A model generated the notes under the pieces. It had not been told where the DNA came from, did no database searches, and saw only the letters and a program-made list of their open reading frames with translations. DNA of 64,000 nucleotides from Escherichia coli (lineage in GTDB: Bacteria; Pseudomonadota; Gammaproteobacteria; Enterobacterales; Enterobacteriaceae): the NCBI RefSeq assembly GCF_030013595.1, contig NZ_CP122769.1; one strand, 5' to 3'. A program made the position numbers and the translations under genes. Within the stretch, counting starts at the first letter, position 1; each line of letters begins with the position of its first letter. Of the stretch, positions 1 to 38,505 are shown piece by piece.

Positions 1-1107
1 CAGGCCATCTACTCCTTCAGATCCTCAGGAGGAGTCAAAATATTTCAACAGTTTGAAAAACACTTCAGACCTAACATATTTTACTTAAACACATGCTTTA
101 GGTGTGAACCTGAAATTTTAGAGGTGGCCGGAGCACTGATAGGAAAGAATGTTTACCGTTATGCCAAAGAGTTACGCTCGGCAAAAAAGGGAGGAGGAAA
201 GGTCACTTTTCGTTCATATGTAGATATGGAGGAACAGATACAGGGTATTTTAAGCCTTATAAATCAGGATCCACATGGATGGGCAATTCTAAGCCGCAAT
301 AATGCTCACTTGGATGAGCTAGAAAGTTTGATCGAACAGCCAGTAATTCGTTACGGAGGTAAATCATTCTGGGATGAAAAAGAAACAAGCGATGTGTTAA
401 GCCTTATGGCCTTTTTCCGACAATCAAATGATCCTCGCTTAATGAAGAGAGTATTGGCATTGTTTGGAGAACAGGAATCAGTTTTGGATGATGTGGCATT
501 GAGTATGAGAGGAAGAAAAGTTACTTTTGGCGACCTTGCCATCCCGGAGGACAGTTCTCTCGAAACAAAAACATTACATTCAAACTTCGTGCGCTTTACC
601 CAGGAAAGTACTGATAAAGTTGAGATAGCAAAACGTTTCGCCAACCTTACGAAATGGATGGAATCGTCGTCAATCAAGATGAGGAGTAATAAAGGTACAG
701 CAACCTTAACAAAAATTGCTTTAGACACTTGTAAACAGTGGGCAGAAAAGACTGGTTGGATGAATATGATCAATCGTGCTGCTGCAATGTCATTAGGCCC
801 TAGGAAGAAGGACGAGGAATACAGCCCAGAGAAAGTAGTCCTATCAACCTTGCATGGTTCAAAGGGTCTTGAGTGGAATAAAGTAATAATAATGAGTTGT
901 AATGCGGATCAGATACCAAGTAAAAGATCAGTTGGGGAGGAGGCAATAGAAGAAGAAAGACGTTTGCTTTATGTTGGATTTACGCGTGCAGAAAAGCAAC
1001 TTTTTGTAATGTGGTATGGTGACCCTTCTTTCTTTTTAAGAGAATGCAGTGAAGAAAAGATAAAAGAAGCAGCTAATATTCGAATTTCTCCAGTTTATAC
1101 AGAATAA
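1..1107 (+). CDS. UvrD/Rep-family SF1 DNA helicase, C-terminal part (5' end lies outside the window)
   Basis: Reading frame is open from nt 1 with no stop. Helicase motifs in translation: IYSFR (motif III-like), LNTCFRCEPEIL (motif IV-like), VLSTLHGSKGLEW (motif V), LLYVGFTRAEKQL (motif VI). Confidence 0.8.
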   Translation, partial: QAIYSFRSSGGVKIFQQFEKHFRPNIFYLNTCFRCEPEILEVAGALIGKNVYRYAKELRSAKKGGGKVTFRSYVDMEEQIQGILSLINQDPHGWAILSRNNAHLDELESLIEQPVIRYGGKSFWDEKETSDVLSLMAFFRQSNDPRLMKRVLALFGEQESVLDDVALSMRGRKVTFGDLAIPEDSSLETKTLHSNFVRFTQESTDKVEIAKRFANLTKWMESSSIKMRSNKGTATLTKIALDTCKQWAEKTGWMNMINRAAAMSLGPRKKDEEYSPEKVVLSTLHGSKGLEWNKVIIMSCNADQIPSKRSVGEEAIEEERRLLYVGFTRAEKQLFVMWYGDPSFFLRECSEEKIKEAANIRISPVYTE

Positions 1108-1501
1108 TTCGATATGGGCATTTACTTATGCTTAAAGCTATAGTATAAAAACAATGAGCTTAAATATCAGCTCCCAAATTTGAGTAACTTTGCTTAAAGT
1201 TACTTTCGCGTTAAGCGTTGATTTAGCCGTGAAAAGCGGCCAGCTTAAACAAGCTGTAAGACACCACCGGCAAAATGTCACCTTTGTCGCTGGTGCACTT
1301 CCCATGCCTGAAAAAGGCAATCTGAATTTACCAAACCGTAACTAATTTAGCTCCTCCTGGAGCTATTTTTGTTGCGTACTTCTAATGCCAGATAGTATAA
1401 ATCAGGCGGTTCATAGCTTACGGGAGATGAATGACAGGCTTTGCCTTCGTGTTGAAACAAAAAATTGTTTCTTCCTTCTTACTATATATAGGTGACCCCA
1501 A

Positions 1502-2374
1502 ATGTCTAAAAATAAAGCTCGCAGTAAAGCCCTTCATCAAACCTTTAGTGAAATTATTCCAGAGATGGATAAGGCGCTAAACAAACAGCTCTTAGAAGTT
1601 CTGATGAAATATACAGAACGTGATAATGAACTGATTGTTATTTTGAATGAGGACGGCCCAAATATCATTGAACTTAAGTCTCTTAAGCCTGTGTCTTTGT
1701 TGGCCGAAAAGCTTTCTGCTTATTCAAGCTATTATCATGTGGATGTTGTGGAGCTCGTGGTCAAGAAAATTGATTTCGAAGGAGCTTATAAGCTTCTTAA
1801 AGCTTCCCCAGATGTACCACTTTTTAAAAGCTTAACTGAACTGGATAAATATCTTGTTGAGGAGTTTGAAAAATACGGATTAAATTCATTTCTTGACGTG
1901 GATAATCTGGATTACTCACTTGAAAAAGCCAGTGAACTCAAAAATGAGCAGTTAATAAATTGGGTTTCGGACATCATTTGCAAACGTGAAAAATTAACTT
2001 TACGTAAGCGTTTTGATGTCGCAGTAAAGGCCCACTACGAAAATGTAGAAAAAATGTATGATACCATTCGTCCGTTAATGAAAAAACTGGGTTTCCCAGA
2101 AGATCTCATGACGCACACCTTTAGTGAGTTAAGCGTTTTTGAAACTAAAGGATGGGACCATGCAATAAAATCGAAAATTGAGACTCTCGCTAAGCGTGAA
2201 ACTCAATATTTAGATGATGCGGCTAAAGCAGAGAATCGACGTCTTGTAACAGAGAAGTTGGAGAACTCTTTAGCGATTGCACCAACTAAACCAACAAGAA
2301 ATTGGTTACATATTGCCGGAATTGCCTGTTTGGTAGTCTGCACGTTCATGTATGTAACTAATAAATTTATTTAA
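1502..2374 (+). CDS. hypothetical protein with C-terminal transmembrane anchor
   Basis: 290-aa ORF, ATG preceded by purine-rich stretch; hydrophobic C-terminus (WLHIAGIACLVVCTFMYV). No recognisable family. Confidence 0.5.
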   Translation: MSKNKARSKALHQTFSEIIPEMDKALNKQLLEVLMKYTERDNELIVILNEDGPNIIELKSLKPVSLLAEKLSAYSSYYHVDVVELVVKKIDFEGAYKLLKASPDVPLFKSLTELDKYLVEEFEKYGLNSFLDVDNLDYSLEKASELKNEQLINWVSDIICKREKLTLRKRFDVAVKAHYENVEKMYDTIRPLMKKLGFPEDLMTHTFSELSVFETKGWDHAIKSKIETLAKRETQYLDDAAKAENRRLVTEKLENSLAIAPTKPTRNWLHIAGIACLVVCTFMYVTNKFI

Positions 2375-2431
2375 TCCTGTTAAGGGGGAACCCTAACGGG
2401 GCTTCTCTTTGAACAAATCGAGGAGCGGAAA

Positions 2432-2809
2432 ATGTCATATCTTGAATATATCAATGAAGTAAAAGTGTCCGGGATAGTTATCAGTGCTGTGGAGAAAAAA
2501 ATGACTGACCAGAGTATAGGTTTGTTAATAAAGCTCAAAAATAGGATGAAGACAGAAGTTGATGGTGAAATCACTGAGAGAGAATTTTCAGTTCAAATCA
2601 AGGTGTCGCCTGAAATGTATTCAACCTGTTTCACTGGTATAAATCAGGGTGATGAGTTGATGGTCTCCGGTTATATTGTTGTCGATACTATTATGATTGA
2701 AGGGAGAGAACATCCTCTTGACTACATGAGAGTGGTAGCAACAAGTAAGTTGGCTCACATACCTAAACCTCTAAAAGGTTTTGGACAAAGTAGCTTTAAT
2801 CAGATCTGA
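2432..2809 (+). CDS. hypothetical protein, possible OB-fold ssDNA-binding-like
   Basis: 125-aa ORF with RBS GAGGAGCGG upstream. Alternating beta-strand pattern (NEVKVSGIVIS ... EFSVQIKV ... ELMVSGYIVV) loosely resembles SSB OB-fold; assignment is weak. Confidence 0.4.
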   Translation: MSYLEYINEVKVSGIVISAVEKKMTDQSIGLLIKLKNRMKTEVDGEITEREFSVQIKVSPEMYSTCFTGINQGDELMVSGYIVVDTIMIEGREHPLDYMRVVATSKLAHIPKPLKGFGQSSFNQI

Positions 2810-2829
2810 CATTAAACCCACCCTAAAGG

Positions 2830-2860
2830 GGAGAAATCCCTTCATGGGATTTCTCCTTTT
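2830..2860 (+). terminator. intergenic stem-loop (11-bp perfect stem GGAGAAATCCC/GGGATTTCTCC, loop TTCAT) followed by TTTT
   Basis: Perfect inverted repeat read directly from sequence, T-run downstream, sits between stop of upstream ORF and RBS of next ORF. Confidence 0.5.
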
Positions 2861-2869
2861 GGAGTCCCC

Positions 2870-3847
2870 ATGAAACAAAAATTTAGGGCTACTGCAATAA
2901 GTAGTAATCAACTTAGTTTTTTTTCTATACTCGATATAGATGAAGATGAAATAACGCAAATAGTTGATTCACCCAAAGAGCATTTAAATGATGCTTACAC
3001 GTCCGGATTAAACTTTAAATCAGAAGAAAGTAACATTTCTGAGATAAATTATGATTCTGAAAGGCGTGAAAATCACCTTTATGAAAAATCCAAATTACTT
3101 AAAAATCAGATTTTGCATACAATTAATTTTGCAGCAGAAACAGATTATCTATATACGGTTGAAGAATATAACCCAGATTTGGGTGGTCTGGTAATAGAAT
3201 GGACCCCTGAGGATGTGTATGTTGTTTTTCTATCCGCTATGGAAGAGTCTTTGGAAATCATTAAAGAACTAGTGTTGAGGAGAAAGTTATTCTTCAAAGA
3301 TGACAATGGTAATATCACAGTGAATCCACTTTTAGAAGCTGAAACACGGTGGTATATGTCAAAATCATTTGAATACACTTGTTTATCTCATGGACTTGAT
3401 GCATGTGAATTTAGAGCGGAATTAAAATCATGGCTCTATTATCATTCGCATCGTTCGATTAGTGAAAACACGAAATTAGCTGAATGCAGGAATGATGATG
3501 AAATCATTTTGCATGATTGCAATGACGATATGGGCTGGGACATCTTCTTTGATCAGGATTATTTAATGTCAGAAAAAAAACTGGCTGTTAAATGGACTGA
3601 CAGGGAAATTATGGATGTTTACATAAAAGCTTTTAAATCCACATTAGAGTTGTTTGACGAGCTTGTTTCATGTGATCTGTTAACTAAACGAAACGCTTTT
3701 GGCAAGTTAGAAATCAATCCAATATTCGAAAATCATTTTGAATGGATCATGTCTGAAGCTTTTGAAATAGTGGGAAATCATCTTGGTTATAATGTGCCTC
3801 AAATCAGGAAACTGATGGCAACTATTTGCCAAATGAATCTCAAATAA
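2870..3847 (+). CDS. hypothetical protein
   Basis: 325-aa ORF, co-directional with neighbours, preceded by stem-loop and GGAG-like RBS. No recognisable motifs. Confidence 0.5.
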   Translation: MKQKFRATAISSNQLSFFSILDIDEDEITQIVDSPKEHLNDAYTSGLNFKSEESNISEINYDSERRENHLYEKSKLLKNQILHTINFAAETDYLYTVEEYNPDLGGLVIEWTPEDVYVVFLSAMEESLEIIKELVLRRKLFFKDDNGNITVNPLLEAETRWYMSKSFEYTCLSHGLDACEFRAELKSWLYYHSHRSISENTKLAECRNDDEIILHDCNDDMGWDIFFDQDYLMSEKKLAVKWTDREIMDVYIKAFKSTLELFDELVSCDLLTKRNAFGKLEINPIFENHFEWIMSEAFEIVGNHLGYNVPQIRKLMATICQMNLK

Positions 3848-3904
3848 AATGCCACTGGCAAACATCTGCCAGAGGGCGGTGTTTGCATTTTACCGGAGTT
3901 AAAA

Positions 3905-4963
3905 ATGTCTAATGCCGCTATGAAGTTAAATGAAACATCTTCTGATGCTTATGAAAAATTAGAAGCTCTTCTTTCCCCGGATGTTATAAAGTTAAAACAT
4001 TATGTGGATAAAGGTGAGTATCTTTTAGTTCTAGCAAAGGACCTTTTTGGTATTCCAGAAATGGATCCAAAGATGGCTGTGCCTGTTTTCAAAACTAAAA
4101 CCTCGTATCGAGCTCCGCTGAACAAAGACTACATACCAAATCCCCGAATACTTGAACAAGTGGTTAAACTGCTTATCAGTCCGGATATAGATTTAAGTGT
4201 GTGTCTTAAAGGTGAGTCCGGTTCTGGCAAGACTGAAATGGTAATGTACATTAGCCACATGATGAATTGGCCGCTGACAATTAAGCAGATCAACAGCAAT
4301 ATTCGAGTTGATGAGCTTGAAGGTGAGCGCAGTCTTAATGGTGGTAATACAGGTTTTGTACACAGCGATTTGGTAACGGGATTTCGTAATGGTCACCTCA
4401 TTCTTCTGGATGAAGTGGACAAAATCGATCCTGATACGGCAGCAAAACTTCACATGCCCATTGAACGTAAGCCCTGGTCACTCAGTGCTAATGGTGGTGA
4501 GGTTATAACTGCTAATGGCTACACGCGATTTATTGGTACTGCAAACACAAACATGAGTGGAGGCGCTCGCCGGTTCGTTTCTTCTCAACGTCAAGATGCA
4601 GCTTTTATAAAGCGGTTCTTGATAGTTGAAATGGAGAAGCCCGACAAAGTTGCTTTAACCAATGTGCTTACTAAACGATATAGCTCTTTGCCTTTTCAGG
4701 TCATTGAGAAGTTCGTAAGAGTAGCGATTGCAGTAAATGACTCTGGTACAGAAGACAGTGTGATGGATATTCGTCAATTAGTAGCTTGGGTTGGCACGTC
4801 GATGACGTTAAAAACCTTTAGTCTTCTTGACACTTTCAAAATAGCTTTTGCTTCTGCTTTACCTTTACATGTGGTCGATCTTGTTCTTCAAGCTATAGAT
4901 CTTTCTCTTGGCGAAGACAAGGATAAATCGCTGGAGTATTTCACAGCAAAAAAGTCGAGTTAG
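3905..4963 (+). CDS. AAA+ ATPase, MoxR/CobS-like
   Basis: Walker A GESGSGKT, Walker B HLILLDEVDK, downstream sensor-like FIGTANT; size and motif spacing typical of MoxR/CbbQ/CobS-type AAA+ proteins. Confidence 0.8.
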   Translation: MSNAAMKLNETSSDAYEKLEALLSPDVIKLKHYVDKGEYLLVLAKDLFGIPEMDPKMAVPVFKTKTSYRAPLNKDYIPNPRILEQVVKLLISPDIDLSVCLKGESGSGKTEMVMYISHMMNWPLTIKQINSNIRVDELEGERSLNGGNTGFVHSDLVTGFRNGHLILLDEVDKIDPDTAAKLHMPIERKPWSLSANGGEVITANGYTRFIGTANTNMSGGARRFVSSQRQDAAFIKRFLIVEMEKPDKVALTNVLTKRYSSLPFQVIEKFVRVAIAVNDSGTEDSVMDIRQLVAWVGTSMTLKTFSLLDTFKIAFASALPLHVVDLVLQAIDLSLGEDKDKSLEYFTAKKSS

Positions 4964-5094
4964 ATGGGATTTGTTATGAAACCTCTGATATTTGTATCTC
5001 AGAGTTATCCCATCTTGAATTTAGTGCGTTTTTAAGTACGGATGGTGCTGCTACCATTGCTATAGCAAAAAACGGAACTAATTTTACTGGACTT

Positions 5095-5268
5095 ATGCAA
5101 CTGAATAACGACTATTCTTTATTGTTTTATCATGATGGTAAAATAAATATGGAAGGTCTGATTAAACAAATGGAATTAAAAGGTTATATGTATCAGGGAG
5201 CAATGGGCAATGATGATGTTGTTGCTGAGTTTCCCGGTATTCTTTTAATTTCACCAGAGAAGCTTTAA
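5095..5268 (+). CDS. possible small ORF (57 aa) in otherwise unexplained 355-bp gap
   Basis: ATG..TAA ORF (MQLNNDYSLLFYHDGKIN...) ending immediately before a stem-loop cassette like those that follow other genes in the array. No RBS checked; speculative. Confidence 0.2.
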   Translation: MQLNNDYSLLFYHDGKINMEGLIKQMELKGYMYQGAMGNDDVVAEFPGILLISPEKL

Positions 5269-5280
5269 TATCAACCCTAT

Positions 5281-5320
5281 CGGGAAATCTTTCCCGTTGG
5301 GGAGGGTTTCCCCTTTTTTT
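5281..5320 (+). terminator. double stem-loop cassette (CGGGAAA-TCT-TTCCCG and GGGGAGGGTTTCCCC) followed by T7
   Basis: Two adjacent palindromes and a T-run read from sequence, immediately upstream of RBS GGAGAAACCC and ATG at 5319. Confidence 0.5.
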
Positions 5321-6458
5321 GGAGAAACCCATGACTTTAAATACTTCAATGCTTAACAAAGTATCTGCAAAACAAATCTCTGAGAATTTTGCAAAATCAT
5401 ATCCAGATTTACTGGAAGGTGCAGTTATAACAAAAATTGAAATAAGTGGCTGTCAAGGATCGCGTCGAACCGATAAAATCGATTTGTCTTATGATGGAGA
5501 TGATATTACGGATCAAAAAAGCGTATCTAAAAGCGAAGTACGCTGGATTGACATAAAAGCCCTTAGCTTCAAAAGTACGATTACCAGCAGAATATCAACT
5601 CTTTGCTCACGCTTGTGCATCCGCTATAGCAATATGTGGATTTTACCAGTATCCAGTATGGAAGAGTTTCTGGAAGGGGCCCAAGAGATTGAACGAGAGT
5701 TTCAGGCAGGTATTCAAAACGTTGTAGACAATTATGAGATGCATATTGAGGCTGAAAAAAATAGAAGCCCAAGAATGTCTTCTTTGATTGATCAGTTGAA
5801 ATTAACTAAAGATGATTTCATAAAATCCTTTAGATTTAATATTGCTCACTTTATTCCTTTTACGCCTATTAGCGTTGAAGGTGATGAAACCCAGGACTAC
5901 TATCAGGAACAATTGATAACAGATCTGGCAGAAGAAGCAATGAAGGTTTATGAAAAAATTAGCAAAAATAACAATTTGCGCTCAAGTACTATTGACCGAC
6001 TGAAGCAAATGCAAAATAAGATCATTAGCTTCATGTTTATACATAAAGAGGCGGCAGTACTTGCAGAAGCTATAAAACACATAATGAATAATTTACCTAA
6101 AGGTGCCATTTCTGAACCTCGCGACGTTGCGGTGTTACAGCAGTGGTTTTATTTCATGAGTGATGCTTCAATGTTAAAGCGTATTATTTCAGGAGAGCAA
6201 AAGGTTACTGACTGGTTGGAATCTATTACCAGATCATTTAATCAAAGCTCACAAACAGAACCGAACGCGCTACAGAACACAGGTATTGAAGCTATTTTAG
6301 ATTCAACAAATGTGTTCCAGGTTGAACCTGTCGTAGAGAACGATATAAATAACAGCACGTTTTCAAACACTGATCCTGTAGCTGAACCTGAGAAATCAGT
6401 TTCGCAACAGGAAGACAATGTTGAAAATTGTTTTGATATCGAGCTCAAAGGCTGGTAA
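5319..6458 (+). CDS. hypothetical protein
   Basis: 379-aa ORF between the AAA+ ATPase and vWA genes; no recognisable motifs. Position suggests it belongs to the same module. Confidence 0.5.
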   Translation: MEKPMTLNTSMLNKVSAKQISENFAKSYPDLLEGAVITKIEISGCQGSRRTDKIDLSYDGDDITDQKSVSKSEVRWIDIKALSFKSTITSRISTLCSRLCIRYSNMWILPVSSMEEFLEGAQEIEREFQAGIQNVVDNYEMHIEAEKNRSPRMSSLIDQLKLTKDDFIKSFRFNIAHFIPFTPISVEGDETQDYYQEQLITDLAEEAMKVYEKISKNNNLRSSTIDRLKQMQNKIISFMFIHKEAAVLAEAIKHIMNNLPKGAISEPRDVAVLQQWFYFMSDASMLKRIISGEQKVTDWLESITRSFNQSSQTEPNALQNTGIEAILDSTNVFQVEPVVENDINNSTFSNTDPVAEPEKSVSQQEDNVENCFDIELKGW

Positions 6459-6477
6459 CTGTTTGCTTTATTAAAAA

Positions 6478-6520
6478 CCCCAGATGGGTACTTCACCATC
6501 TGGGTGAGTACCCCTTTTTT
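6478..6520 (+). terminator. intergenic stem-loop with two mutually exclusive pairings followed by T6
   Basis: CCAGATGG/CCATCTGG and GGGTACTTCACC/GGTGAGTACCC alternative stems, then CTTTTTT; lies between stop at 6458 and ATG at 6536. Confidence 0.5.
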
Positions 6521-6535
6521 ATAAAGAGGTATTCT

Positions 6536-8554
6536 ATGAAATTAGATCTTAAATCATCACCGCGCCATATTAAGCGTTTACAGAATATAGCAAAAGTCAT
6601 TAGCGGCTTAGGCGATGTAAGAGTTGTAATAGACGACAATACCAAAGGACCGTATTTTGATCCTGTAAATAAAGTTTGTGTTTTACCAAACGGCGATTAT
6701 AGCGATGATGACTTTGTCAGTCTGATTGAAGGTTTTACCTGTCATGAAGCTGGTCATGGTCGCTATACCGACAGCGAGGTTTACAGTGACGCCTTTAATA
6801 GTGTTCTCAAGTCATCTGAAGGGTTTACACGCTTCGATGACGGAATGAATGCAGAGTTTGAGAGCCTCGCTGAGAAACGTAAAGCTTATAGCAGGGCAAA
6901 ACGTCTTACCGGGCTTATAAATCTGTTCGATGATGTACAGATGGAAGAGAAGGTTGGTAACGATTATCCGGATGCAAAGCGGCGGCTTGCAGCCACTTAC
7001 GCACTGATGGTTAAAGCCGGAAGGATGACTCCTGATATATCTTCTCGTCCGGAAAATCCTGTCCTATTTATTGAGTGGTATCTGCTTAACTCATTGCGAG
7101 TAAAAGTCCTTCAGCAGGCAGGTCACAAAGAAACACTCGATCCGTTTTTTGACTATGCCCAAAAGATACTTTCTCCAGTAATTTCTGATGTTGAGGAAAT
7201 TTTTCATGATGCTCTTGGTTGTGAAAATACTCAGGGCTGTGAATCCCTTGCTCGTAAGACCCTGGCTCTTTTAGAGAGACTGCGGGATGAGGCAAGGGAA
7301 CAACAGCAGCAGACAGAGCAGGAGGAGCAGGAGGCATATGATGAATCCGAGACCGAGACCGATACCGATACCGATACCGAATCAGAAGATAAATCGCTTG
7401 AGTCGACTGATAGTCGTGAGGATGATTCTGAGGACGATAGTGAAGGTCAGGCAGATACTTCCGATAACTCTGATCTTGCTCAAGAGGGATGTTCTGAGCC
7501 TTCAGAACTTGCTGAAGATAACGAGGGAAATAATGAACCCACCGGTGGCAATCCCACAGGTGATAACATTATTGAAGACGATACTGATGCGATTAACCCT
7601 TCCGAGAGTGAATCAGATGAAGCCAGTTCGACTAACGTTGAAGATGAAAGTAACTTTTCATCGGCTCAATGGGAGATACTGGCAGATTTGTTGGATGCCT
7701 TTCTTGGCAGTGATGAGGATAGCGAAGATTATCACGATGCTTTGGCTAAAGAGATTGAAGGTATTGCATCAAAAGTATCCGATGACGTGAAAGCCGAATT
7801 CGGTGCTTCTGAATGGGATATCCCTGATCTCCTTATCGATTTGAATGTTTACAATGAGGCTTTGTCTCTGAGTCATTCAATCGGTAGCGACTTGTCTGTT
7901 TTACAGCAGGTTAAAATGCGTGGCCGAAACAAAACTCATGAGCGTGGAATTACCTTCGATGGAAATCGATTAATTCTGTCACCAATGGGAGTTCGTGATG
8001 TCTTCAGAGCTCAAAGCGAATCTAAAAATAGAGGGCATGTTGGCCTCGTATTAGTTCGTGATATTTCAGCGTCAATGGCTAATGATGAAAGATATATTCA
8101 TGCCATTAAGTCAGATCTTGCTTTATCGATGGCCGCTGAAAGTTTGTCAAAAATGCATGTCTCCAATATAGTCTTTCCCTTCAAGGAAAGTGAATTTGAG
8201 ATTATCAAAACGTTTGATCAAAGCGTTGAGGAATCTCTATCGAAATTCACTCTTGGATGTAAGGGTTATTATACCCCTACGGGATCGGCTTTAATGGCAG
8301 CTGTTGATCTGTTACTTGACAGCCAATTCGATAGGAAAATAATTTTTCTTATAACTGATGGTTATCCGAATAAATCGGAATTTACTATCGGCGAAGTTAT
8401 GGAAAAGGCTAAATGTAATGGAATAGAAATCGTTGGTGTTGGTATTAAGACTGATGAAATAATTGGTTTTGAAACGGACACTTTCGTAACAGTTGATGAT
8501 ACTTCTTTATTGTCTATTGAAGTCAGTAAGCTAGTTCATCAAATACTTTCTTAA
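6536..8554 (+). CDS. von Willebrand factor A (vWA) domain protein, CobT-like, with N-terminal HExxH motif and central acidic low-complexity region
   Basis: C-terminal MIDAS-like motifs LVLVRDISASM and FLITDGYPN; N-terminal CHEAGHGRY (HExxH); central D/E/S/T-rich stretch including ETETDTDTDTESED encoded by hexanucleotide repeats. Confidence 0.75.
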   Translation: MKLDLKSSPRHIKRLQNIAKVISGLGDVRVVIDDNTKGPYFDPVNKVCVLPNGDYSDDDFVSLIEGFTCHEAGHGRYTDSEVYSDAFNSVLKSSEGFTRFDDGMNAEFESLAEKRKAYSRAKRLTGLINLFDDVQMEEKVGNDYPDAKRRLAATYALMVKAGRMTPDISSRPENPVLFIEWYLLNSLRVKVLQQAGHKETLDPFFDYAQKILSPVISDVEEIFHDALGCENTQGCESLARKTLALLERLRDEAREQQQQTEQEEQEAYDESETETDTDTDTESEDKSLESTDSREDDSEDDSEGQADTSDNSDLAQEGCSEPSELAEDNEGNNEPTGGNPTGDNIIEDDTDAINPSESESDEASSTNVEDESNFSSAQWEILADLLDAFLGSDEDSEDYHDALAKEIEGIASKVSDDVKAEFGASEWDIPDLLIDLNVYNEALSLSHSIGSDLSVLQQVKMRGRNKTHERGITFDGNRLILSPMGVRDVFRAQSESKNRGHVGLVLVRDISASMANDERYIHAIKSDLALSMAAESLSKMHVSNIVFPFKESEFEIIKTFDQSVEESLSKFTLGCKGYYTPTGSALMAAVDLLLDSQFDRKIIFLITDGYPNKSEFTIGEVMEKAKCNGIEIVGVGIKTDEIIGFETDTFVTVDDTSLLSIEVSKLVHQILS

Positions 8555-8625
8555 TAAACTCTACCCAATCGGGGCAAAAGGCCCCGGTGGGTCTTTTTGC
8601 TCCATGAAGGAATAAGGAGCAAAAT

Positions 8626-8847
8626 ATGACTCAGATAAAAACTTACCGTGTAGAACATGAAAAAGTCGGTGCGATGCATAAAGTCCGTATTTTCGGACGT
8701 GTTGGTGAAGTTATAAGCAATGATAGCCCTCAGGAAAGAATCTTCCGCGAAGTCACTATAGCGGAGGGTAATAGCCAGCAGGCTGCGTTACTTGTAGATA
8801 ACTACATACAGCGTCTTGAGAATAATGGCTTCACGACTGAAGCATAA
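8626..8847 (+). CDS. hypothetical small protein (73 aa)
   Basis: ORF with strong RBS AAGGAG upstream; no recognisable motifs. Confidence 0.4.
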   Translation: MTQIKTYRVEHEKVGAMHKVRIFGRVGEVISNDSPQERIFREVTIAEGNSQQAALLVDNYIQRLENNGFTTEA

Positions 8848-8852
8848 ATGTT

Positions 8853-8876
8853 GAGGGCCCCCGGGCCCTCTTTCTT
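8853..8876 (+). terminator. palindrome GAGGGCCCCCGGGCCCTC followed by TTTCTT
   Basis: Perfect GC-rich palindrome directly after the stop at 8847, followed by a T-rich run. Confidence 0.45.
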
Positions 8877-8960
8877 AAATTCTGCGTTGTGGGTTTCTCC
8901 CTGTCTTCTGCACCGCAGAAGGCATTGAGAAACTCACAATGCCAGATAAGAGAGATCATC

Positions 8961-10193
8961 ATGACTTATGCATCCCCGGCTCTTCGTCGTAATCCACAGG
9001 AAGTATCTGAACACTTTATTAAACTCGTTCATGCTCGAATTGCTGAAGTGTCTGGCTGGAAGTATATATTCGAAAGAATACCTGCTTTCAAAGACGCTTG
9101 TGCAAAAGCCCCGAGCCAGGTTCCTTGCCCGTTTACTGGCGCAGGGAAATCGAAGTTTCGTTTCCGACAAAAAGACCTTTATACCGGATGTGCGATCCAT
9201 AATGACTTTCCGGTAAATGAGTTTTGCGACGGAATTGATGTTCTGGCGAAATATTATGAATTAAGTAAAACGCAGACTTGCAAAAAGATTCTCTCAGATT
9301 TTTTCGGGATGGATCTGCATGCTCCGTTAACTGACGCCGACATTGAAAATGAACGACGCTATAAATCAGCAGTTCGTGCCACAGAAACTCTTGACCGAGA
9401 GGAAGTGGCAAAGCGAATGCGAAAACTTGATGTGATGTATCACTATACCGGTGAAATCAAGCCTAATACTCCTGTTGCTTTGTACCTCCGTAATCGTGGG
9501 ATCTCCCGCTTACTGAGTCACTTACCAAAGGATTTAGGCTTTAATAACCGGATCTACTATTGGGATAAAGATAAGCAGAAATCGATTATCTATCCGGGAA
9601 TGATTGCGATCTATCGTGACACCCGAGGTCGGCCTCTGACTATTCATAGAACATACGTAGACAAAAATGGTGATAAGGCACCTGTAGAAAATCCAAAGCT
9701 GATGATGAAGCCTCCTGCCGATATGACAGGTGGCTCAATTCAGTTGTTTGACCCTCACTATGATTCAGGTAGTTCGACCTGGACACTGGGAGTGGCTGAA
9801 GGGATCGAGAACGCGCTTTCTGTTGTAGAAGCGACTTCAACACCATGCTGGGCAGCCAGCTCCGCATGGTGCCTTGAAAACGTTACTGTTCCTGATTTTT
9901 TACTGCCTCCGCCGGATGTAAAATCTATAAACTTTTATATCTGGGCGGATAAGGATATTGCTAACTCACAAGGCACTCGTGCCGGTATTGAAGCTGCTCA
10001 GCGACTTCAAAGCCGCATGGTTGAGTTTTTGGCTAAACGATATCCCGCATCAAAGCTGACAATTGAAGTCTTCGAACCAGCACAAGATATTCCTGATGGG
10101 AAAAAGGGTATCGACTGGAACGATGTTCTCCAGTTAACAGGGCAGGATGGATTCCCGATTCACTGGGCTCCTGAATGTCTTAATCAGCTGTAA
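8961..10193 (+). CDS. Toprim-domain protein, putative primase-like
   Basis: Toprim-like motifs LGVAEGIENALSV (acidic E) and IWADKDIANSQG (DxD), Cys/His-rich N-terminus. Start chosen at ATG 8961 (MTYASP...); ORF extends to 8889 upstream. Confidence 0.55.
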   Translation: MTYASPALRRNPQEVSEHFIKLVHARIAEVSGWKYIFERIPAFKDACAKAPSQVPCPFTGAGKSKFRFRQKDLYTGCAIHNDFPVNEFCDGIDVLAKYYELSKTQTCKKILSDFFGMDLHAPLTDADIENERRYKSAVRATETLDREEVAKRMRKLDVMYHYTGEIKPNTPVALYLRNRGISRLLSHLPKDLGFNNRIYYWDKDKQKSIIYPGMIAIYRDTRGRPLTIHRTYVDKNGDKAPVENPKLMMKPPADMTGGSIQLFDPHYDSGSSTWTLGVAEGIENALSVVEATSTPCWAASSAWCLENVTVPDFLLPPPDVKSINFYIWADKDIANSQGTRAGIEAAQRLQSRMVEFLAKRYPASKLTIEVFEPAQDIPDGKKGIDWNDVLQLTGQDGFPIHWAPECLNQL

Positions 10194-10226
10194 CAACGAT
10201 AACTCCCCCGCTTTTTGCGGGGGGGG

Positions 10227-10270
10227 TTATCTTATCAATATTATATTTTAAAATTGTATTGATAAGATAA
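10227..10270 (+). promoter_or_regulatory. 14-bp perfect inverted repeat TTATCTTATCAATA / TATTGATAAGATAA separated by 16-bp AT-rich spacer; candidate operator
   Basis: Read directly from sequence; follows the hairpin CCCCCGCTTTTTGCGGGGG (10205-10227) inside a 270-bp ORF-free gap. Confidence 0.4.
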
Positions 10271-10463
10271 CCGCTTTCCTTCGTGATAATTACCTGCCTT
10301 TAAGGTCTTTTCACGGCTGAGATGCTTGCTCAGTTAAATAAATGTGCGGTACTACTGGCTATGGTCGGTTGTATGACATGGTTATTCCATAAACTATTAA
10401 AACCCATAACGGGAGTATTACCGTTATGGTGATGCTCGTCGTTTTACATCGGAGAGCATTTTA

Positions 10464-10985
10464 ATGAATTTTCAAATTAACGAAGTTTTTAATAAATTTG
10501 CTGCTGTTATAAAATCGCGCATCGTCAATGAACCATCGTCATGCTATTTGCTGCATGATAATGAGATAGATATAACGATTTTGAAACATAGCATATTAGA
10601 AAATGACAGAAACCTGTTGTACGTAGTTCGTCCTTCAGGAACGTGTTTGTTGCGTTGTGACAAATATTTCTATCCGAAATATTATCTTCGTTGCCGTGGA
10701 GATTATAAGTCATTCATATATGTCCATCTTGATCTACATAGTGGTGAAGCTAAAGAAATCACATGGGAGCAAGCAGACGATATGCTGTCTAGTCCAGGAA
10801 AACCCCCATTAAAAGGGAATCTTGGACGATTTGAGTATATAAAAGTTGTGGTTGAGGACCTTCGTATTCGAGGTTACGCTGATTATCTTCCTGCGTATAA
10901 TCTTGATGACCTTCGCCGTTTTGCCTTACAGGACGACCGCCCATCCCTTGTCAGATACATTGACAATGTCATGGCAACGGTCTGA
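10464..10985 (+). CDS. hypothetical protein
   Basis: 173-aa ORF with RBS GGAGAG upstream; no recognisable motifs. Confidence 0.45.
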   Translation: MNFQINEVFNKFAAVIKSRIVNEPSSCYLLHDNEIDITILKHSILENDRNLLYVVRPSGTCLLRCDKYFYPKYYLRCRGDYKSFIYVHLDLHSGEAKEITWEQADDMLSSPGKPPLKGNLGRFEYIKVVVEDLRIRGYADYLPAYNLDDLRRFALQDDRPSLVRYIDNVMATV

Positions 10986-11063
10986 TTGATTGCTAATTGA
11001 TTTACATATTTTCCCTGATGGCCAACCTGCATCAGGGAGGCCTCAATAACGAATGGAGGCTGT

Positions 11064-11942
11064 ATGAAGTTAGCTACGGACCTGGTAAAAGCTATTTTGA
11101 TTAGAAATGGCGTTGAACCAGTAAATATAAGCGAATCATCTAAGTTATCTTTGAAACAACCACTGACAGAACTTAAATTCAGTTTATATTTGCGAACTGA
11201 GCATTTATCTCACTTCCTACCCGGTTATGTTTATTCTATAAAAGAATGTCCACTGTCATATGACATCGGGATCGAAATTCAGAAAATCTTCGAAAGTTTA
11301 CATTTGTTAAACGAAGAATTTGAATCCCTCGGTTTTGTTTCTGTATGGATAGAAATGCATCAAAGCATTTTTGAACAAAGTCGGTTTAAGAAAAGTAACT
11401 TTACTTTTCGGGAGGAAGAGGTCGAGCTTGCTAAAGGGCTTGTTTGTTCTCACAATTCACAAATAAGTAATGCGGCTTATTTCTGGCTTCAGCACTTTGA
11501 GGAGTTTATGATTTATGTTCGTAATAAGCTTATCGACCTCTTTCGAGAGGCCTATGACCTGATCCTTGGAATGCAGCAAGTATTTTTCATTCGGGAAAAG
11601 GAAGAGCTGTTGAAAACTATAAGTTATGGCGATGAGCTGTATGAGGTGAAATTCATGGCGGCTGAGCTTTACTCTATCGAACAGAACTTAAAGTGTTCTG
11701 AATCGATAAGTACAAAATCTCAAGCTTCGGCATATATTAACCGCATCCGTGAGTTTGTGCGTTCGGGGTGGAGGCAGGGCTATATAGTCTGCCATCATAA
11801 GCGAAGTAATCAAATTTCATCATTGTCATTACCGATGTACTTGAAAGATACGTCAGGCCGAAGTGCTCGAAAGCGAGTAAAACGTCTTATATCTTCTACA
11901 GTTTGTGGTAGAAATAAAGATTTAGGTCTTACAGATTTTTAA
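11064..11942 (+). CDS. hypothetical protein
   Basis: 292-aa ORF with RBS GGAGG upstream, preceded by stem-loop CCCTGATG...CATCAGGG; no recognisable motifs. Confidence 0.45.
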   Translation: MKLATDLVKAILIRNGVEPVNISESSKLSLKQPLTELKFSLYLRTEHLSHFLPGYVYSIKECPLSYDIGIEIQKIFESLHLLNEEFESLGFVSVWIEMHQSIFEQSRFKKSNFTFREEEVELAKGLVCSHNSQISNAAYFWLQHFEEFMIYVRNKLIDLFREAYDLILGMQQVFFIREKEELLKTISYGDELYEVKFMAAELYSIEQNLKCSESISTKSQASAYINRIREFVRSGWRQGYIVCHHKRSNQISSLSLPMYLKDTSGRSARKRVKRLISSTVCGRNKDLGLTDF

Positions 11943-11960
11943 TTAAATTATACCCATGTG

Positions 11961-11996
11961 GGGATCACACCCCATATGGGAGTGATCCCTTTTTTT
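11961..11996 (+). terminator. stem-loop GGGATCAC...GTGATCCC with nested palindrome CCCATATGGG, followed by T7
   Basis: Inverted repeats and T-run read from sequence, between stop at 11942 and ATG at 12013. Confidence 0.5.
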
Positions 11997-12012
11997 ATTG
12001 AGAGAGGATCAC

Positions 12013-12948
12013 ATGAAAATTATCGAAAAAATCATTAATGCCTTTTTGGTTGTTCAACATAAAAAAATACAGGTTAAAAACATTACATTTTTAGACAATG
12101 GGCAGGGCATGTTCTCTGGTATGTCTTTTGATGCTGATGTTTCACTGGAGTTTATGTATGAATCAGCAAAAGCATATAGTTCTTGTTTCTTTGATATTCC
12201 CTTTCCAGGTTTTGAAGATGCAAATCTGGAGGAAATTACGAAATTTCAATTAGATGCTTTGAAGCAAAGAAAGAATCATTCTTTCTTTGTTAACCATTTG
12301 AGGTTTCCTATAGTTTTAAGGGAAGGGTGCAAAATCGAAAGAGGAGAAGTCTATTCAATTTCGAATTGCACTTATAATAAAGAAAGATTGCAGTATCTTT
12401 TTTCTCAGGATATTTACGGTAAGTTGTATAATTCCTTAGAGAAAGAATTAAGCTCGTTTTTCTCATTTATCAATGTTGAGGTGCACGAGTTGTTAAAAGA
12501 TGCTGTATGCTTTGCATTAAAAATCCTGAATAAGATATCTTTGGATACACCTGAAAGACTTATTAAAGCTTTTAATTATCGTGACTGGTATTGTAGTTAC
12601 GATGTTGAGCTTTTTAGGAAAGGCTTACCTGGTCATATTCTGGAAGAGCTCATTGCTCCAGATATCTTACTTTCAGACCTTAACGGTTGTAGAAAAATAC
12701 TTAGAAATGCAAAACGATTTCTAAATGGACATACACAAACCAATTGTGTTTATATTAAATATGAATGGTGGTTGGGGCCTGTTGATACCTCACACTCAGC
12801 TAAGTTGATGTCTGACAAAGAAATTAATAACCGAAGTGACTTGAAGAATTTTTCAAAGGTCTTTTTCAAAGAGTGTTTAAGTTCTGGTAAGTCGGAATAT
12901 GAAAACCATCTTAGTGAAAAAGAACATGCGCTTCGCTATAATTATTAA
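12013..12948 (+). CDS. hypothetical protein (~312 aa), first of a tandem array of similarly sized genes
   Basis: ATG at 12013 preceded by RBS GAGAGAGGA (the listed ORF starts at an upstream TTG). No recognisable motifs. Confidence 0.45.
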   Translation: MKIIEKIINAFLVVQHKKIQVKNITFLDNGQGMFSGMSFDADVSLEFMYESAKAYSSCFFDIPFPGFEDANLEEITKFQLDALKQRKNHSFFVNHLRFPIVLREGCKIERGEVYSISNCTYNKERLQYLFSQDIYGKLYNSLEKELSSFFSFINVEVHELLKDAVCFALKILNKISLDTPERLIKAFNYRDWYCSYDVELFRKGLPGHILEELIAPDILLSDLNGCRKILRNAKRFLNGHTQTNCVYIKYEWWLGPVDTSHSAKLMSDKEINNRSDLKNFSKVFFKECLSSGKSEYENHLSEKEHALRYNY

Positions 12949-13016
12949 TTAAAATTATTTTCTCCCATAGGGATTTCTCCCTATGGGAGAAATCCCTCTA
13001 TTAAGAGGGTATTGAA

Positions 13017-13688
13017 ATGAATGCTATACAAAAGTTAGTTGAATCTATTCTTGTTAAAATGGGTTTTGTTGGCGCTGTAGTGGAAAATATATATTTGGAT
13101 TCAAAACCATTTCGGCATATTCGATTTGTGGCTGATATTCCAGTAATATCTTTTCTACCTCATTTGGTGAAATATCTTAAGGGTGCAGACCATCTTTACA
13201 GTGGTAACGATGATTTGCATCCTCTTTTCATTTATTTTTCCGAAGCGGCTACATTAAAAGCAGGTCCTGTAAATCTCGCGAACTTTCGTTTTGAAGTTTC
13301 TATAGCTTCAACTCATTTACGACTGGTCTCAGAGCAGCCTGATTTGCTTTTCAAAGGATTTAACCGGGATAATCTAGAATACGTTTATTACCGCTCAGAT
13401 TTGGCCTCTAGGGATCTTATACTAGGCCTTGTTGAACACGGTTCTCCTTTCATAAAACATCTACATGGACTTATACAAAAGCGAATTTTAAACGAGTTCT
13501 CTCTGATTTTTTCTGTTCTTGAAAAGATTTTAGAAAGCGCGAAGCCACAAATTCTTGCTTGCTTCCATAGTGTTGATTATGAAATGAACGTAAAAATAAT
13601 AGCCGAAGCTATACCTGAAACTGTATCTAATCAGATAGTCACATCTGATTATATAGTTAATGTTAGCGCCAATGATATAAGACTGTAA
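13017..13688 (+). pseudogene. 5' part of a gene interrupted by the IS21-family element
   Basis: Stop codon TAA (13686-13688) lies inside the first bases of the IS end TGTAATTCGCC; the reading frame resumes in the same frame after the element (15787 onward). Confidence 0.5.
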
Positions 13689-13761
13689 TTCGCCATTTGG
13701 GTTGTCCGCTCCACCCAACATGTTGTTTCCTTGAGGTTCTCACACCAGAAAGGACATCGAC

Positions 13762-15731
<1,970 letters not shown>

Positions 15732-16133: not shown

Positions 16134-17072
16134 ATGTTTAAAGAATCTGACCACGTGGAATTTGTTAGTGCCTTTCTTTATCAAAATTTAGGCCTTAATG
16201 TTTCCGCTGACGATATAACCGTTCAATTATCTGATACTTCGTTCGACAAAGTAACCTTTGATTACGATGTAGATATCGATAATTTAAATTGTATGTTGGA
16301 TCTCTACATATCTGAGCTAATAAAGCACAACGCATCTTACTCCGATTCTATTCTTTTGAAACAAAAAATAATTTATTTTCTTGGAGTATTTAAGAATTTC
16401 GGATTTTTTACGTTTGATATTCGCGGATATAGTAATACTTTAAGCCCAGTTAAAGTTATTGATATTGTTTCAATGATTATTAATGACTGTGAAGAGTTAT
16501 CTAAAGCTAATTCTTCTACTGATGCTATAAGAAATCTTTATCTCGATAAAATGAAGGTGGATGGGAAAGTGTTAGTTGCGAAATTTGCACTTAAACAGTT
16601 TTTTCATTCCGACTTTGGTGACTTTATCTCATTTGTCGAGAAAAGAATTACAGATTGTCTTAATGAAACTTTAAGGATTATCAAAGCTGTTGAACATGGC
16701 TTTGTACGTGTAGGGCAGCATAAGATTAATCGCCGTATTAATGATGACTTAAAGTTATGCATTGATTTCAATACTGATGATTATCCGGCAAATATGCCAG
16801 ATATATATATTAAGTTTAACGATACATTTGATGGGAACGGGGCGTTATATTGTGACAATGATGCCCTCATATCCCTCTATACCGATGTTGCTTCAATTAT
16901 CAATGTGCCGGTGATGATGGAAGTAAGATTGATCAATAAAAGAGGGCGTGTTGTCTGTGATTCTTCGCATTCAACTTACGTATCTCTCGAAAGTAATGAC
17001 CGATACAGAGTAACTGATCGCACATTACTAATAACTGAAGCTTTTGACGATTTTCGTAACGCGTCTCAATGA
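16134..17072 (+). CDS. hypothetical protein, paralogue A of tandem pair
   Basis: 312-aa ORF with RBS GAGGTAGTG. Shares colinear blocks with next gene (KVLVAKFALKQFFHSDFGDFISFVEKRIT vs QVMIARFALQQFWDTHFIGLITFVSESIT; EAFDDFRN vs EVFDNLRN). Confidence 0.5.
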   Translation: MFKESDHVEFVSAFLYQNLGLNVSADDITVQLSDTSFDKVTFDYDVDIDNLNCMLDLYISELIKHNASYSDSILLKQKIIYFLGVFKNFGFFTFDIRGYSNTLSPVKVIDIVSMIINDCEELSKANSSTDAIRNLYLDKMKVDGKVLVAKFALKQFFHSDFGDFISFVEKRITDCLNETLRIIKAVEHGFVRVGQHKINRRINDDLKLCIDFNTDDYPANMPDIYIKFNDTFDGNGALYCDNDALISLYTDVASIINVPVMMEVRLINKRGRVVCDSSHSTYVSLESNDRYRVTDRTLLITEAFDDFRNASQ

Positions 17073-17237
17073 TCCTTTTGCTTCAGTCCAAAAAAGTAAC
17101 TTTGGTTGGCTGAAGACACTTGTCTATGACAATGTAAAATCTGTCGCTGGCATCTTCTTTTAGCTTAACCAAATTTTTATCTAACCCAGTGGGGAAGTCG
17201 CTTCCCTTCTGGGGCACTTCCTCTCAAATTCGAGGTA

Positions 17238-30357: not shown

Positions 30358-30442
30358 AATTTTCCTCGTACGGCTGGTACGGCCAGCAGAAAACGTTGCT
30401 GTACAGAAAGGTGCTGCCCGGAAAGCAGCACCTTTCTGTCTG

Positions 30443-31084
30443 TCAGAGCACCAGCTGGATTTCTGGTGGAGGAGGGGGAAGGGTATCAGTTCCGTTATTG
30501 ATCCCCGCGCTTGTGCTGCCGGAAGACACGCTGGCCGATACCCATTTAAAGAAACCTGCAAACGCGGTTGAATCTAGCGTCTCCAGAGACACAACCTTAT
30601 CGGTGAGCTGTTTTAAGTGCTCATGGCCTGCTTTAGGACCAACGGCGCAGGCAATGATGGATCCGAATCCCCGGCCGCGAATCGCTTTTACCGCTTCACC
30701 GTACGCCAGGGCATCAGAAGGGGTTCCATCAGTCATCAGGAATACCAGAGGACGCCAGTCTCCTTTTGTATCACCATCTGAGCGACGTACATCCCGTTCA
30801 ACACACTGCATCAGACATTCAAGGGCAGCACCGGTGAACGTCCCGCCTGCGCTTGGCACAACGATGTCAGAAAACTGGAAGTCTTCCAGCGGCGTGAGAG
30901 GAATGAACTCACGCGCCTCATTGTCATAGGTGATAATGGAGATATGAACGCTTTCGAGGGCGTAGGGATCCTGGCGAAGAGCGCTAAGCATCGCCTGAAT
31001 TCCAACGTTAACGGAATGGATGGACTCACCGCGCATCGAGCCGGATGTGTCGATAACAAGGTAAACAGGCAGGCGGCGCATCAC
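30443..31084 (-). CDS. TerY-like vWA protein (second TerY paralogue)
   Basis: MMRRLPVYLVIDTSGSM and FLMTDGTPSD MIDAS motifs; 213 aa; start overlaps terX stop. Confidence 0.8.
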   Translation of the reverse strand: MMRRLPVYLVIDTSGSMRGESIHSVNVGIQAMLSALRQDPYALESVHISIITYDNEAREFIPLTPLEDFQFSDIVVPSAGGTFTGAALECLMQCVERDVRRSDGDTKGDWRPLVFLMTDGTPSDALAYGEAVKAIRGRGFGSIIACAVGPKAGHEHLKQLTDKVVSLETLDSTAFAGFFKWVSASVSSGSTSAGINNGTDTLPPPPPEIQLVL

Positions 31085-31722: not shown

Positions 31723-31744
31723 GACATCCCCTTAATTAATAAAA

Positions 31745-33314: not shown

Positions 33315-33331
33315 CGTAAGATTTAGCCTGC

Positions 33332-34540: not shown

Positions 34541-34550
34541 TATGATTTCC

Positions 34551-36586: not shown

Positions 36587-36587
36587 T

Positions 36588-38502: not shown

Positions 38503-38505
38503 GCC

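Follow-up and report, generated by a model that had tools for sequence, protein, structure and literature searches.

Gene content of the locus

We analysed a stretch of 64,000 nucleotides of Escherichia coli DNA (contig NZ_CP122769.1; the whole stretch is referred to as the window), and in particular its positions 3905-8554, which hold the genes of a CobS-like AAA+ ATPase, a DUF3150 protein and a CobT-like VWA protein. This region is part of the IncHI2 plasmid backbone and lies just 3' of the Tra2 genes. Many IncHI2 plasmids, from E. coli, Salmonella and relatives, carry it with 100% identity; 1,402 PLSDB records matched, and the best full-length counterpart of the window is NZ_CP117034.1. The three open reading frames (ORFs) are all on the plus strand, namely 3905-4963 (352 amino acids), 5319 or 5331-6458 (379 or 375 amino acids) and 6536-8554 (672 amino acids). 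On the 100%-identical IncHI2 plasmids they are labelled in RefSeq as 'AAA family ATPase', 'DUF3150 domain-containing protein' and 'VWA domain-containing protein', respectively. [quoted passage not shown]

3905..4963, plus strand: CobS-like AAA+ ATPase (AAA_5), the motor; Walker A at nucleotides 4211-4234 (G103-T110), Walker B D169-E170
5319..6458 (RefSeq start 5331), plus strand: DUF3150 protein (PF11348); core at residues ~30-305, disordered tail, aromatic tip …ELKGW
6536..7291, plus strand: M48-like zincin N-domain of the CobT-like protein (amino acids 1-252); HExxH at nucleotides 6743-6757, E137 at nucleotides 6944-6946
7298..7765, plus strand: acidic disordered linker (amino acids ~255-410), assigned by composition; aligns with the CobT linker
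7766..8554, plus strand: 'shaft' and VWA domain with intact MIDAS; D509, S511 and S513 at nucleotides 8060-8074, then T580 and D608

The motor and its VWA adaptor

An earlier note on this DNA had described the first and third genes as a MoxR-type AAA+/vWA pair, and hidden Markov model (HMM) searches bore this out. The ATPase matched Pfam AAA_5 (9e-28) and phrog_249 (2.5e-30). Its Walker A motif GESGSGKT occupies residues 103-110 and its Walker B residues are D169-E170, while sensor-1, the arginine finger and sensor-2 align with cellular CobS, so that all catalytic motifs are intact. The PDB matches of the ATPase were Midasin (7e-21), NorQ (2e-9) and CobS (9ujv_A, E 2e-8, residues 43-300 against 17-281). 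The 672-residue protein matched Pfam VWA (8e-7), and its MIDAS, D509-x-S511-x-S513...T580...D608, is complete. No family member departs from D509, S511 and D608, and the conservation of S513 and T580 is 90% or higher. With intact AAA_5 motifs in one protein and a complete MIDAS in its neighbour, the two can be placed in the MoxR class of motor-adaptor pairs.

In order to collect relatives of the VWA protein we used an exhaustive search with its N-terminal 256 residues, which gave 79 cluster representatives, of which ~56 are full length; a word-indexed search with the N-domain had given fragments and close relatives only. A profile of 57 full-length members matched CobT (9uka_G) with E 1.6e-38, positions 8-608 against 25-617 and hence end to end, well ahead of every other VWA protein, and the profile also matched NorD and Midasin. 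Pfam CobT was matched by 21 of the 39 N-domains. In the published structural work, CobT consists of an N-domain with an M48C-peptidase-like fold, a disordered linker of ~90 residues, and a VWA domain preceded by a 'shaft', which enters the ring of CobS (bioRxiv 10.64898/2026.07.21.739949, a July 2026 preprint). The plasmid protein holds every one of these parts, that is, the M48-like N-domain, the acidic linker, the shaft and the VWA domain, the last two being aligned by the profile with their counterparts in CobT.

The linker had been called an acidic repeat. Its low complexity, rich in D, E, S and T, stands: residues ~255-410 contain 37% D+E, 21% S+T and 2% K+R. The repeat does not, since there are merely two short repeats in the DNA beneath the tract (a 6-nucleotide unit in 5.7 copies and a 9-nucleotide unit in 2.1 copies), and a true acidic repeat array was therefore rejected. 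An acidic window lies at the same position in nearly all homologues and aligns with the disordered linker of CobT, so this tract is an inherited CobT trait rather than a special one.

The same combination of an AAA_5 motor and a MIDAS-VWA adaptor is known from NorQ/NorD, CbbQ/CbbO, RavA/ViaA and Rea1 (Midasin), and Rea1 likewise has an acidic linker ahead of its MIDAS domain. These systems differ from the plasmid pair in that their adaptors lack an active zincin and their clients are metalloenzymes, Rubisco and pre-ribosomes.

The zincin site

The motif CHEAGHGRY, in which the earlier note had seen a candidate zincin-like site, occupies residues 69-77 of the CobT-like protein, with HEAGH at residues 70-74. 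HExxH stands in the same alignment column in 54 of the 56 full-length homologues, which are 18-63% identical. We estimated from amino-acid frequencies that a protein of 672 residues has a chance of ~2% of containing an HExxH; because the same column is kept so widely, the motif is not due to chance. In an alignment of 39 N-domains with a mean column identity of 32%, residues H70, E71, H74, D133 and E137 are invariant and N129 and R188 are at least 90% conserved. E137, which follows H74 by 63 residues, is the candidate third zinc ligand, and this spacing is comparable to that in BepA. The family thus conserves both HExxH and a downstream Glu, as expected of gluzincins.

The AlphaFold model of the N-domain is very confident (predicted local distance difference test, pLDDT, 96.2), and its predicted fold matches M48 and M56 peptidases. 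Given this model and the homology to the N-domain of CobT, which is M48-like by crystallography, the predicted zincin fold of the N-domain is sound.

Cellular CobT proteins have a different site. Five of them, each encoded beside cobS, have Ala/Ser, Phe/Met and Arg at the columns of H70, E71 and H74, respectively, and D133 and N129 are also lost. The 'CobT' of phage ICP2 (gp41), on the other hand, keeps HECYH and the downstream Glu, which explains the frequent annotation of phage cobT as a peptidase (PMC8651126). The ICP2 genes gp41-gp42 ('CobT'/'CobS', L012:4969-7842) lie directly beside primase, helicase and DNA polymerase genes. Because CobT-like proteins of mobile elements retain HExxH and the five cellular CobT proteins do not, the motif is kept for some purpose other than chelatase function. 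This pattern of conservation predicts that the peptidase site would be live in mobile elements and dead in true CobT, a point that appears to be new; HExxH in CobT-like proteins did not come up in our literature searches.

The same architecture has been noted elsewhere. In 2021, jumbo phages (group 2.2) were reported to encode a MoxR ATPase together with a vWA protein to which a metallopeptidase is fused N-terminally (PMC7824862). By that published description these phages, like those with cobST (PMC8651126), share with the plasmid module the ATPase and the vWA protein with its N-terminal metallopeptidase, and they differ in lacking DUF3150 and in the roles proposed for them, which are virion assembly and B12.

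Gene neighbourhood and distribution of the module

The co-occurrence of the genes was assessed from nine hand-inspected loci and from tblastn counts. The loci are listed here with the labels used below.

L002, L004: Klebsiella IncFIB/HI1B plasmids
L003: Aeromonas plasmid pAeme5
L005, L007: two metagenomic plasmids
L010: a 318-kb genome-assembly contig
L011: a further metagenomic plasmid contig
L017: a Vibrio cholerae plasmid
L020: IncC, with the order AAA (Vcrx089), Vcrx090, ssb, bet, exo, DUF3150, VWA

The order AAA_5, DUF3150, VWA was found in nine loci with no or one small gene between the first two, and the encoded proteins are 16-40% identical to those of the window. A DUF7146/Toprim_3 gene stands beside the module in L002, L003, L004, L005, L007, L010, L011, L017 and L020, and a UvrD helicase gene lies upstream of it in L002, L003, L004, L010, L011 and L017 and downstream in L007. 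The order gene X, AAA_5, DUF3150, VWA, Toprim primase, usually together with the UvrD helicase and a single-stranded DNA-binding protein (SSB), recurs across MOBH elements (IncHI1/2, IncC, and Vibrio and Aeromonas plasmids). Two of the eight remote VWA homologues are on contigs without the partner genes; one of these contigs is 4.9 kb long and the other ends just 3' of the gene.

Conservation of this cluster was reported in 2009 in the transcriptome study of pCAR1, in which R478 (the IncHI2 prototype), Rts1, SXT and R391 were found to share conserved ORF100-103, a MoxR-like ATPase and a VWA protein being among the products (PMC2642839). The pCAR1 operon ORF100-109 was among the most strongly transcribed units of that plasmid, and its transcription was higher in a transconjugant host (PMC2642839).

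In the window, the mating-pair genes trhF/W/U/N (Tra2) and the UvrD-type helicase gene trhI are upstream of the module and a toprim primase-like gene is downstream. The neighbouring features are the following.

124..1107, plus strand: 3' part of trhI, a UvrD-type conjugal-transfer helicase by annotation; conserved upstream neighbour
2432..2809, plus strand: 125-residue protein, tentatively SSB-like with a possible OB-fold; this slot is held by SSB in related elements
2870..3847, plus strand: gene X, 325 amino acids, no recognised domain; directly 5' of the ATPase gene and a conserved fourth member of the module
5095..5268, plus strand: annotated hypothetical ORF of 57 amino acids between the ATPase and DUF3150 genes
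5282..5312, plus strand: strong terminator-like hairpin, a 14-bp stem followed by a T run, just 5' of the DUF3150 gene
8568..8588, plus strand: terminator-like hairpin directly 3' of the VWA gene
8889..10193 (RefSeq start 8961), plus strand: Toprim-domain primase-like protein (phrog_510 DNA primase, 1.7e-27); conserved downstream neighbour

The longest ORFs of the DUF3150 and primase-like genes begin at a TTG (5319) and a GTG (8889), and the RefSeq starts are 5331 and 8961. The 57-residue ORF at 5095-5268 had no family match and is not kept in the remote loci, some of which carry a gene of ~190 amino acids at this site.

A scan of 9.6 kb gave 20 terminator-like hairpins, and shuffled sequence gave 6.7 ± 3.1. 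GC hairpins with T runs were seen in most intergenic gaps of the same-strand block (5282-5312, 8568-8588, 8853-8870, 10203-10225 and 1348-1365, plus strand). The hairpin at 5282-5312 is a possible attenuator or partial terminator, and transcription of the block may involve attenuation or read-through instead of following a single plain operon.

The DUF3150 protein, gene X and the SSB-like gene

The middle gene had been regarded as an orphan, a claim that we could not uphold: its product belongs to Pfam DUF3150 (PF11348, 3.8e-23), a family that co-occurs with the ATPase-VWA pair in every well-sampled relative. The DUF3150 gene adjoins the AAA_5 and VWA genes in nine independent loci, and tblastn found DUF3150 in 1,993 plasmid records and in none of 50,697 phage records. 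The AlphaFold (AF2) model is fair for residues ~30-305, with a small sheet and long helices (pLDDT mostly 80-95 over residues 30-180), and the last ~70 residues are predicted to be disordered, with pLDDT below 50 past residue 309. After this disordered and often acidic stretch comes a C-terminal tip (window 6380-6458; L020:8854-8928) that is aromatic in 26 of 26 homologues, with endings such as GW, FGF, GFFF and YFF. By analogy only, the tip resembles a docking tip, as HbYX motifs and the tail of SSB are. The unrelated IncC protein Vcrx090 ends in …EQEDHFF (L020:4680-4703), and the aromatic ends of the two proteins may be a shared docking motif. The DUF3150 protein appears to be an obligate third component of the module, and it is a candidate effector, substrate or scaffold.

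Gene X (2870-3847) had no match in Pfam, NCBIfam, PHROG or PADLOC. Its BLASTP relatives stand immediately upstream of AAA_5 in L002, L005, L007 and L010 and, through these, in L017, and a relative in L011 lies a few genes upstream of AAA_5 (E 1e-14 to 7e-3 overall). Gene X probably corresponds to ORF100 of the pCAR1 cluster ORF100-103 (PMC2642839). The 125-residue protein at 2432-2809 had no family match of its own. It is 32% identical to L002_6534, which itself weakly matches the SSB of L010 (E 0.001), and an SSB (PF00436) is present at the equivalent place in L010 and L011.

Relation to cobaltochelatase

The names CobS and CobT come from cobaltochelatase, and the earlier note had pointed out that no other cobalamin genes are present. 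We found both the homology to be true and the observation to hold: the first 50 kb of the window have 57 annotated features, and neither cobN nor any other cob gene is one of them. Embedding of the homologues in cobalamin operons would have spoken for a chelatase; the nine related loci are DNA-processing or transfer blocks of conjugative elements instead. The equivalog scores of the cobaltochelatase families are far from being reached, with 34.4 bits against a cut-off of 558.55 for TIGR01650 (CobS) and 33.8 bits against a cut-off of 779.45 for TIGR02442 (both NCBIfam). A cobalt chelatase was rejected on these grounds, namely scores more than 500 bits below the equivalog cut-offs, the lack of nearby cob genes, and the DNA-processing context.

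Genuine chelatase subunits could still be imagined to hijack the CobN of the host in order to boost cobalamin, and the homology to both CobS and CobT and the PHROG labels 'porphyrin biosynthesis' and 'CobT' would fit this. The usual hosts (E. coli, Salmonella, Klebsiella and Enterobacter) lack the aerobic CobN pathway. Salmonella uses CbiK, and E. coli has no corrin synthesis. Moreover, HExxH is conserved here and absent from real CobT, and DUF3150 is an obligate partner. Together with the scores and the gene context, this makes it extremely improbable that the plasmid genes serve cobalamin synthesis in the way that has been proposed for phage cobST (PMC8651126).

In our view the module is very probably a CobST-like motor-adaptor with a functional zincin site and not a chelatase. 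It has in common with CobSTN (PDB 9uka etc.; bioRxiv 10.64898/2026.07.21.739949) the AAA_5 motor with a C-terminal lid and the adaptor with its M48-like N-domain, acidic linker, shaft and MIDAS-VWA domain, and probably also the mechanical principle, with the shaft in the pore of the ring and the client on the face of the VWA and N-domains. It differs from CobSTN in keeping the zincin residues that cellular CobT has lost, in having DUF3150 and gene X and no CobN, and in being located on a mobile element.

Relation to the IncC host defence evasion genes and proposed role

The window ATPase is 27% identical to Vcrx089 of IncC over 275 amino acids (E 1.5e-27), and the window VWA protein matches the IncC VWA protein with E 3e-23; the latter also has an HExxH (HEAAH). 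The IncC genes vcrx089-093 form the published 'hde' (host defence evasion) operon, in which Vcrx089 is an AAA_5/CbbQ_C ATPase (PMC7498323). With a V. cholerae recipient that has a type I restriction-modification (R-M) system, deletion of vcrx089-090 reduced transfer 25-fold; the defect was rescued by expression in the recipient and not in the donor, and it was absent with a ΔhsdR recipient, and the authors regarded the anti-restriction mechanism as novel and as still under study (PMC7498323). Deletion of the same pair in pKAZ3 increased restriction by EcoBI 424-fold and by EcoKI 906-fold, with ~10-fold effects for some type II systems (PMC11602122). The vcrx089_090 pair is a model of AntiDefenseFinder (PMC11724313), and matches of Pseudomonas phages to this model correlate with broader infectivity (bioRxiv 10.64898/2026.02.22.706922). 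The gene vcrx094 is on the same transcript as vcrx089-093 (PMC7498323), and by gene order it is most likely the DUF3150 gene. The papers on Vcrx089 do not name the DUF3150 or VWA genes as partners.

The IncHI2 module and the hde pair of IncC and SXT thus have in common a homologous AAA_5/CbbQ-type ATPase, the super-family of the element (MOBH relaxase, MPF_F), and DUF3150, zincin-VWA and toprim neighbours. They differ in gene order, which is contiguous in IncHI2 and split by ssb-bet-exo in IncC. We favour an anti-restriction role because it has been demonstrated genetically for the homologous Vcrx089, which stands in the same neighbourhood with DUF3150 and a zincin-VWA protein. The chances seem about even that the three genes are the IncHI2 copy of a CobS/CobT-type motor-adaptor machine, an ancestral backbone part of MOBH-family conjugative elements, that serves host-defence evasion; for anti-restriction or host-defence evasion as the role in itself, we would put them at even or slightly lower. 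That the three proteins work together is probable. The earlier suggestion of a chaperone-like or remodelling system is supported by these comparisons; its target had been left unknown, and IncC genetics now suggests host restriction systems as the target class. We infer that the IncHI2 genes act as the IncC ones do, with the three proteins acting jointly and with proteolysis.

Several points weigh against this role. Orthology of the ATPase to Vcrx089 rests mainly on gene context, because the identity is only 27% and the scores of Vcrx089 with cellular CobS (118-125 bits) are as high as those with most plasmid ATPases. A homologue of Vcrx090, which in IncC is needed along with Vcrx089, was not found by phmmer among all ORFs of window positions 1-14000 and of seven related loci, and neither bet nor exo is annotated within the first 50 kb of the window. 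Our literature searches returned nothing on the function of DUF3150 and no IncHI-specific functional study of these genes. In view of the two hairpins (5282-5312 and 8568-8588), it may be wrong to treat the three genes as one simple operon. Several core genes have been deleted in the equivalent region of SXT, and we tentatively take these to map to the AAA_5/DUF3150/VWA trio. Their deletion changed transfer between isogenic strains by at most 10-fold (PMC2791158). In addition, transposon sequencing of IncC flagged no genes downstream of exo, in a comparison of Cas+ with Cas- that could not reveal R-M-specific genes (PMC7498323). An HMM of gene X also had no match in the IncC locus.

By analogy with CobSTN and NorQD, the ATPase would assemble as a hexameric ring, the 'shaft' of the VWA protein would plug the pore of this ring, and the N-domain would dock on the ATPase lid. 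The MIDAS site would then grip an acidic residue of a client protein, and ATP hydrolysis would twist or pull and thereby remodel the client. The retained zincin site, judged by its conservation, would probably add cleavage of the client, and the DUF3150 protein may be a client-recruiting scaffold or a processed effector. The incoming plasmid would be shielded in the recipient from host restriction, especially from type I R-M. There is a precedent in ArdC of the IncW plasmid R388, a plasmid zincin metalloprotease that overcomes the type I hsdRMS system of the recipient and acts in the recipient (PMC7213743). ArdC differs from the module in being a single protein with a domain binding single-stranded DNA and with no AAA+ motor or VWA domain. 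No sequence relationship to ArdC was found, with one weak MPTase-PolyVal match among the 39 family members.

A more specific and bolder proposal is that the zincin-VWA and DUF3150 proteins are unrecognised partners of Vcrx089-type ATPases. The whole would be a counter-defence machine of several subunits and of a new kind, a metalloprotease driven by ATP and targeted by its MIDAS. It would strip type I restriction enzymes (e.g. HsdR) from incoming plasmid or phage DNA, or degrade them, and would be spread over IncHI, IncC, IncT and IncP-7 plasmids, SXT/R391 and many phages ('cobST'). As a corollary, cellular CobST would be a derived relative in which the fold has been retained and the active site lost. 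This proposal in its entirety is tentative, and we consider it rather doubtful.

An alternative that deserves attention is a remodeller for replication and establishment, which would assemble, recycle or trim TrhI, the SSB-like protein, the Toprim primase or parts of the host replisome while the complementary strand is being made and in the earliest replication rounds, so that any anti-restriction effect would be indirect. The position of the module between UvrD helicase/SSB and Toprim primase in nearly all loci is consistent with this, as are the position of the ICP2 CobT/CobS pair with its HECYH among replication genes and the presence of a Tus-like Ter protein downstream in IncHI plasmids. 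The disordered tail and aromatic tip of DUF3150 would, by analogy, suit the partner-recruiting function of SSB tails. However, the IncC phenotype vanishes in a ΔhsdR recipient, which argues for a defence-specific role over general replication. We consider it unlikely, if worth keeping in mind.

The module might also be an assembly chaperone-protease for the pilus or the type IV secretion system. Such a function has been proposed for MoxR with metallopeptidase-vWA, the same architecture, in jumbo-phage virion assembly (PMC7824862), and for MoxR-vWA in the tail of the archaeal virus ATV. The location of the module directly downstream of trhF/W/U/N, and TraN adjacent to it in L004 and L017, would agree with this, and the authors of the pCAR1 study suspected a role in transfer (PMC2642839). 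On the other hand, the IncC ATPase acts in the recipient and not in the donor, the IncC genes sit with ssb-bet-exo and not with tra genes, and on reading the sequences we saw no obvious signal peptide or membrane segment in the three proteins. This function therefore appears quite unlikely.

Finally, MoxR-vWA cores occur in NTP-dependent conflict systems (PMC7159879), so that a plasmid system for defence against, or exclusion of, phages or competing plasmids comes to mind. PADLOC gave weak matches of the ATPase to DolB and IetA (E ~2e-4), which are only at the level of the P-loop; the VWA and DUF3150 proteins were unmatched by PADLOC, and no defence system was assigned. With no effector domain besides the zincin, and with the genetics of the IncC homologue pointing to counter-defence, such a system is very unlikely. 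We retain evasion of host defence, most probably of restriction if so, as the favoured role.

Other features of the window

An IS21-family element (istA/istB) is located at 13762-15731, with a GC content of 0.53 against ~0.38 in the flanks. In pSE08-00436-1, which is without this insertion, a gene of 921 nucleotides is annotated where the window has an ORF of 672 nucleotides (13017-13688), and because of this longer uninserted gene the IS21 element appears to truncate a backbone gene. The genes at 11064-11942, 11998-12948, 13017-13688, 16134-17072 and 17244-18200 are hypothetical, on the same strand, ~290-320 amino acids long and similar-looking at their N-termini. The hypothetical genes in 10464-13688 and 16134-18200, which are 3' of the primase-like gene, may be a paralogous family. 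The feature at window positions 20802-21764 is also present in the IncFIB/HI1B plasmids L002 and L004, which suggests an ancestral DNA-processing segment that runs all the way from trhI to ter. The tellurite-resistance (ter) region at 26155-46106 encodes unrelated, TerY-like VWA proteins (30443-31081, 31745-32383 and 44865-46106), whose genes adjoin those of a PP2C phosphatase, an InaA-family kinase and a TerY-C metal-binding protein and form a separate VWA-based system.

Implications

Both the domain architecture and the gene cluster were known before, so that the module is a member of an already noticed and partly characterised family and the novelty is modest. Besides the contrast between a live and a dead peptidase site, one further point appears to be new and is testable: the anti-restriction ATPase of the Vcrx089 type likely has the zincin-VWA and DUF3150 genes as its partners. 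This turns the 'novel anti-restriction mechanism' of Vcrx089 into a concrete model, namely a CobST-like motor-adaptor with a zinc-protease site predicted to be live and with a third partner.

Among the many resistance genes on IncHI2 plasmids is mcr-1, and the module is present in more than 1,400 sequenced plasmids of this lineage, with related copies in IncC, IncHI1, Klebsiella IncFIB/HI1B and Vibrio plasmids. The widespread phage 'cobS/cobT' genes, which are usually read as auxiliary metabolism for B12, deserve re-examination as counter-defence or remodelling machines. V. cholerae is not known to have an aerobic CobN pathway, which makes the B12 reading of ICP2 cobST doubtful. If the module is indeed an engine of host-defence evasion, it would help to explain the broad host range of these plasmids and would be a possible target for blocking their spread.

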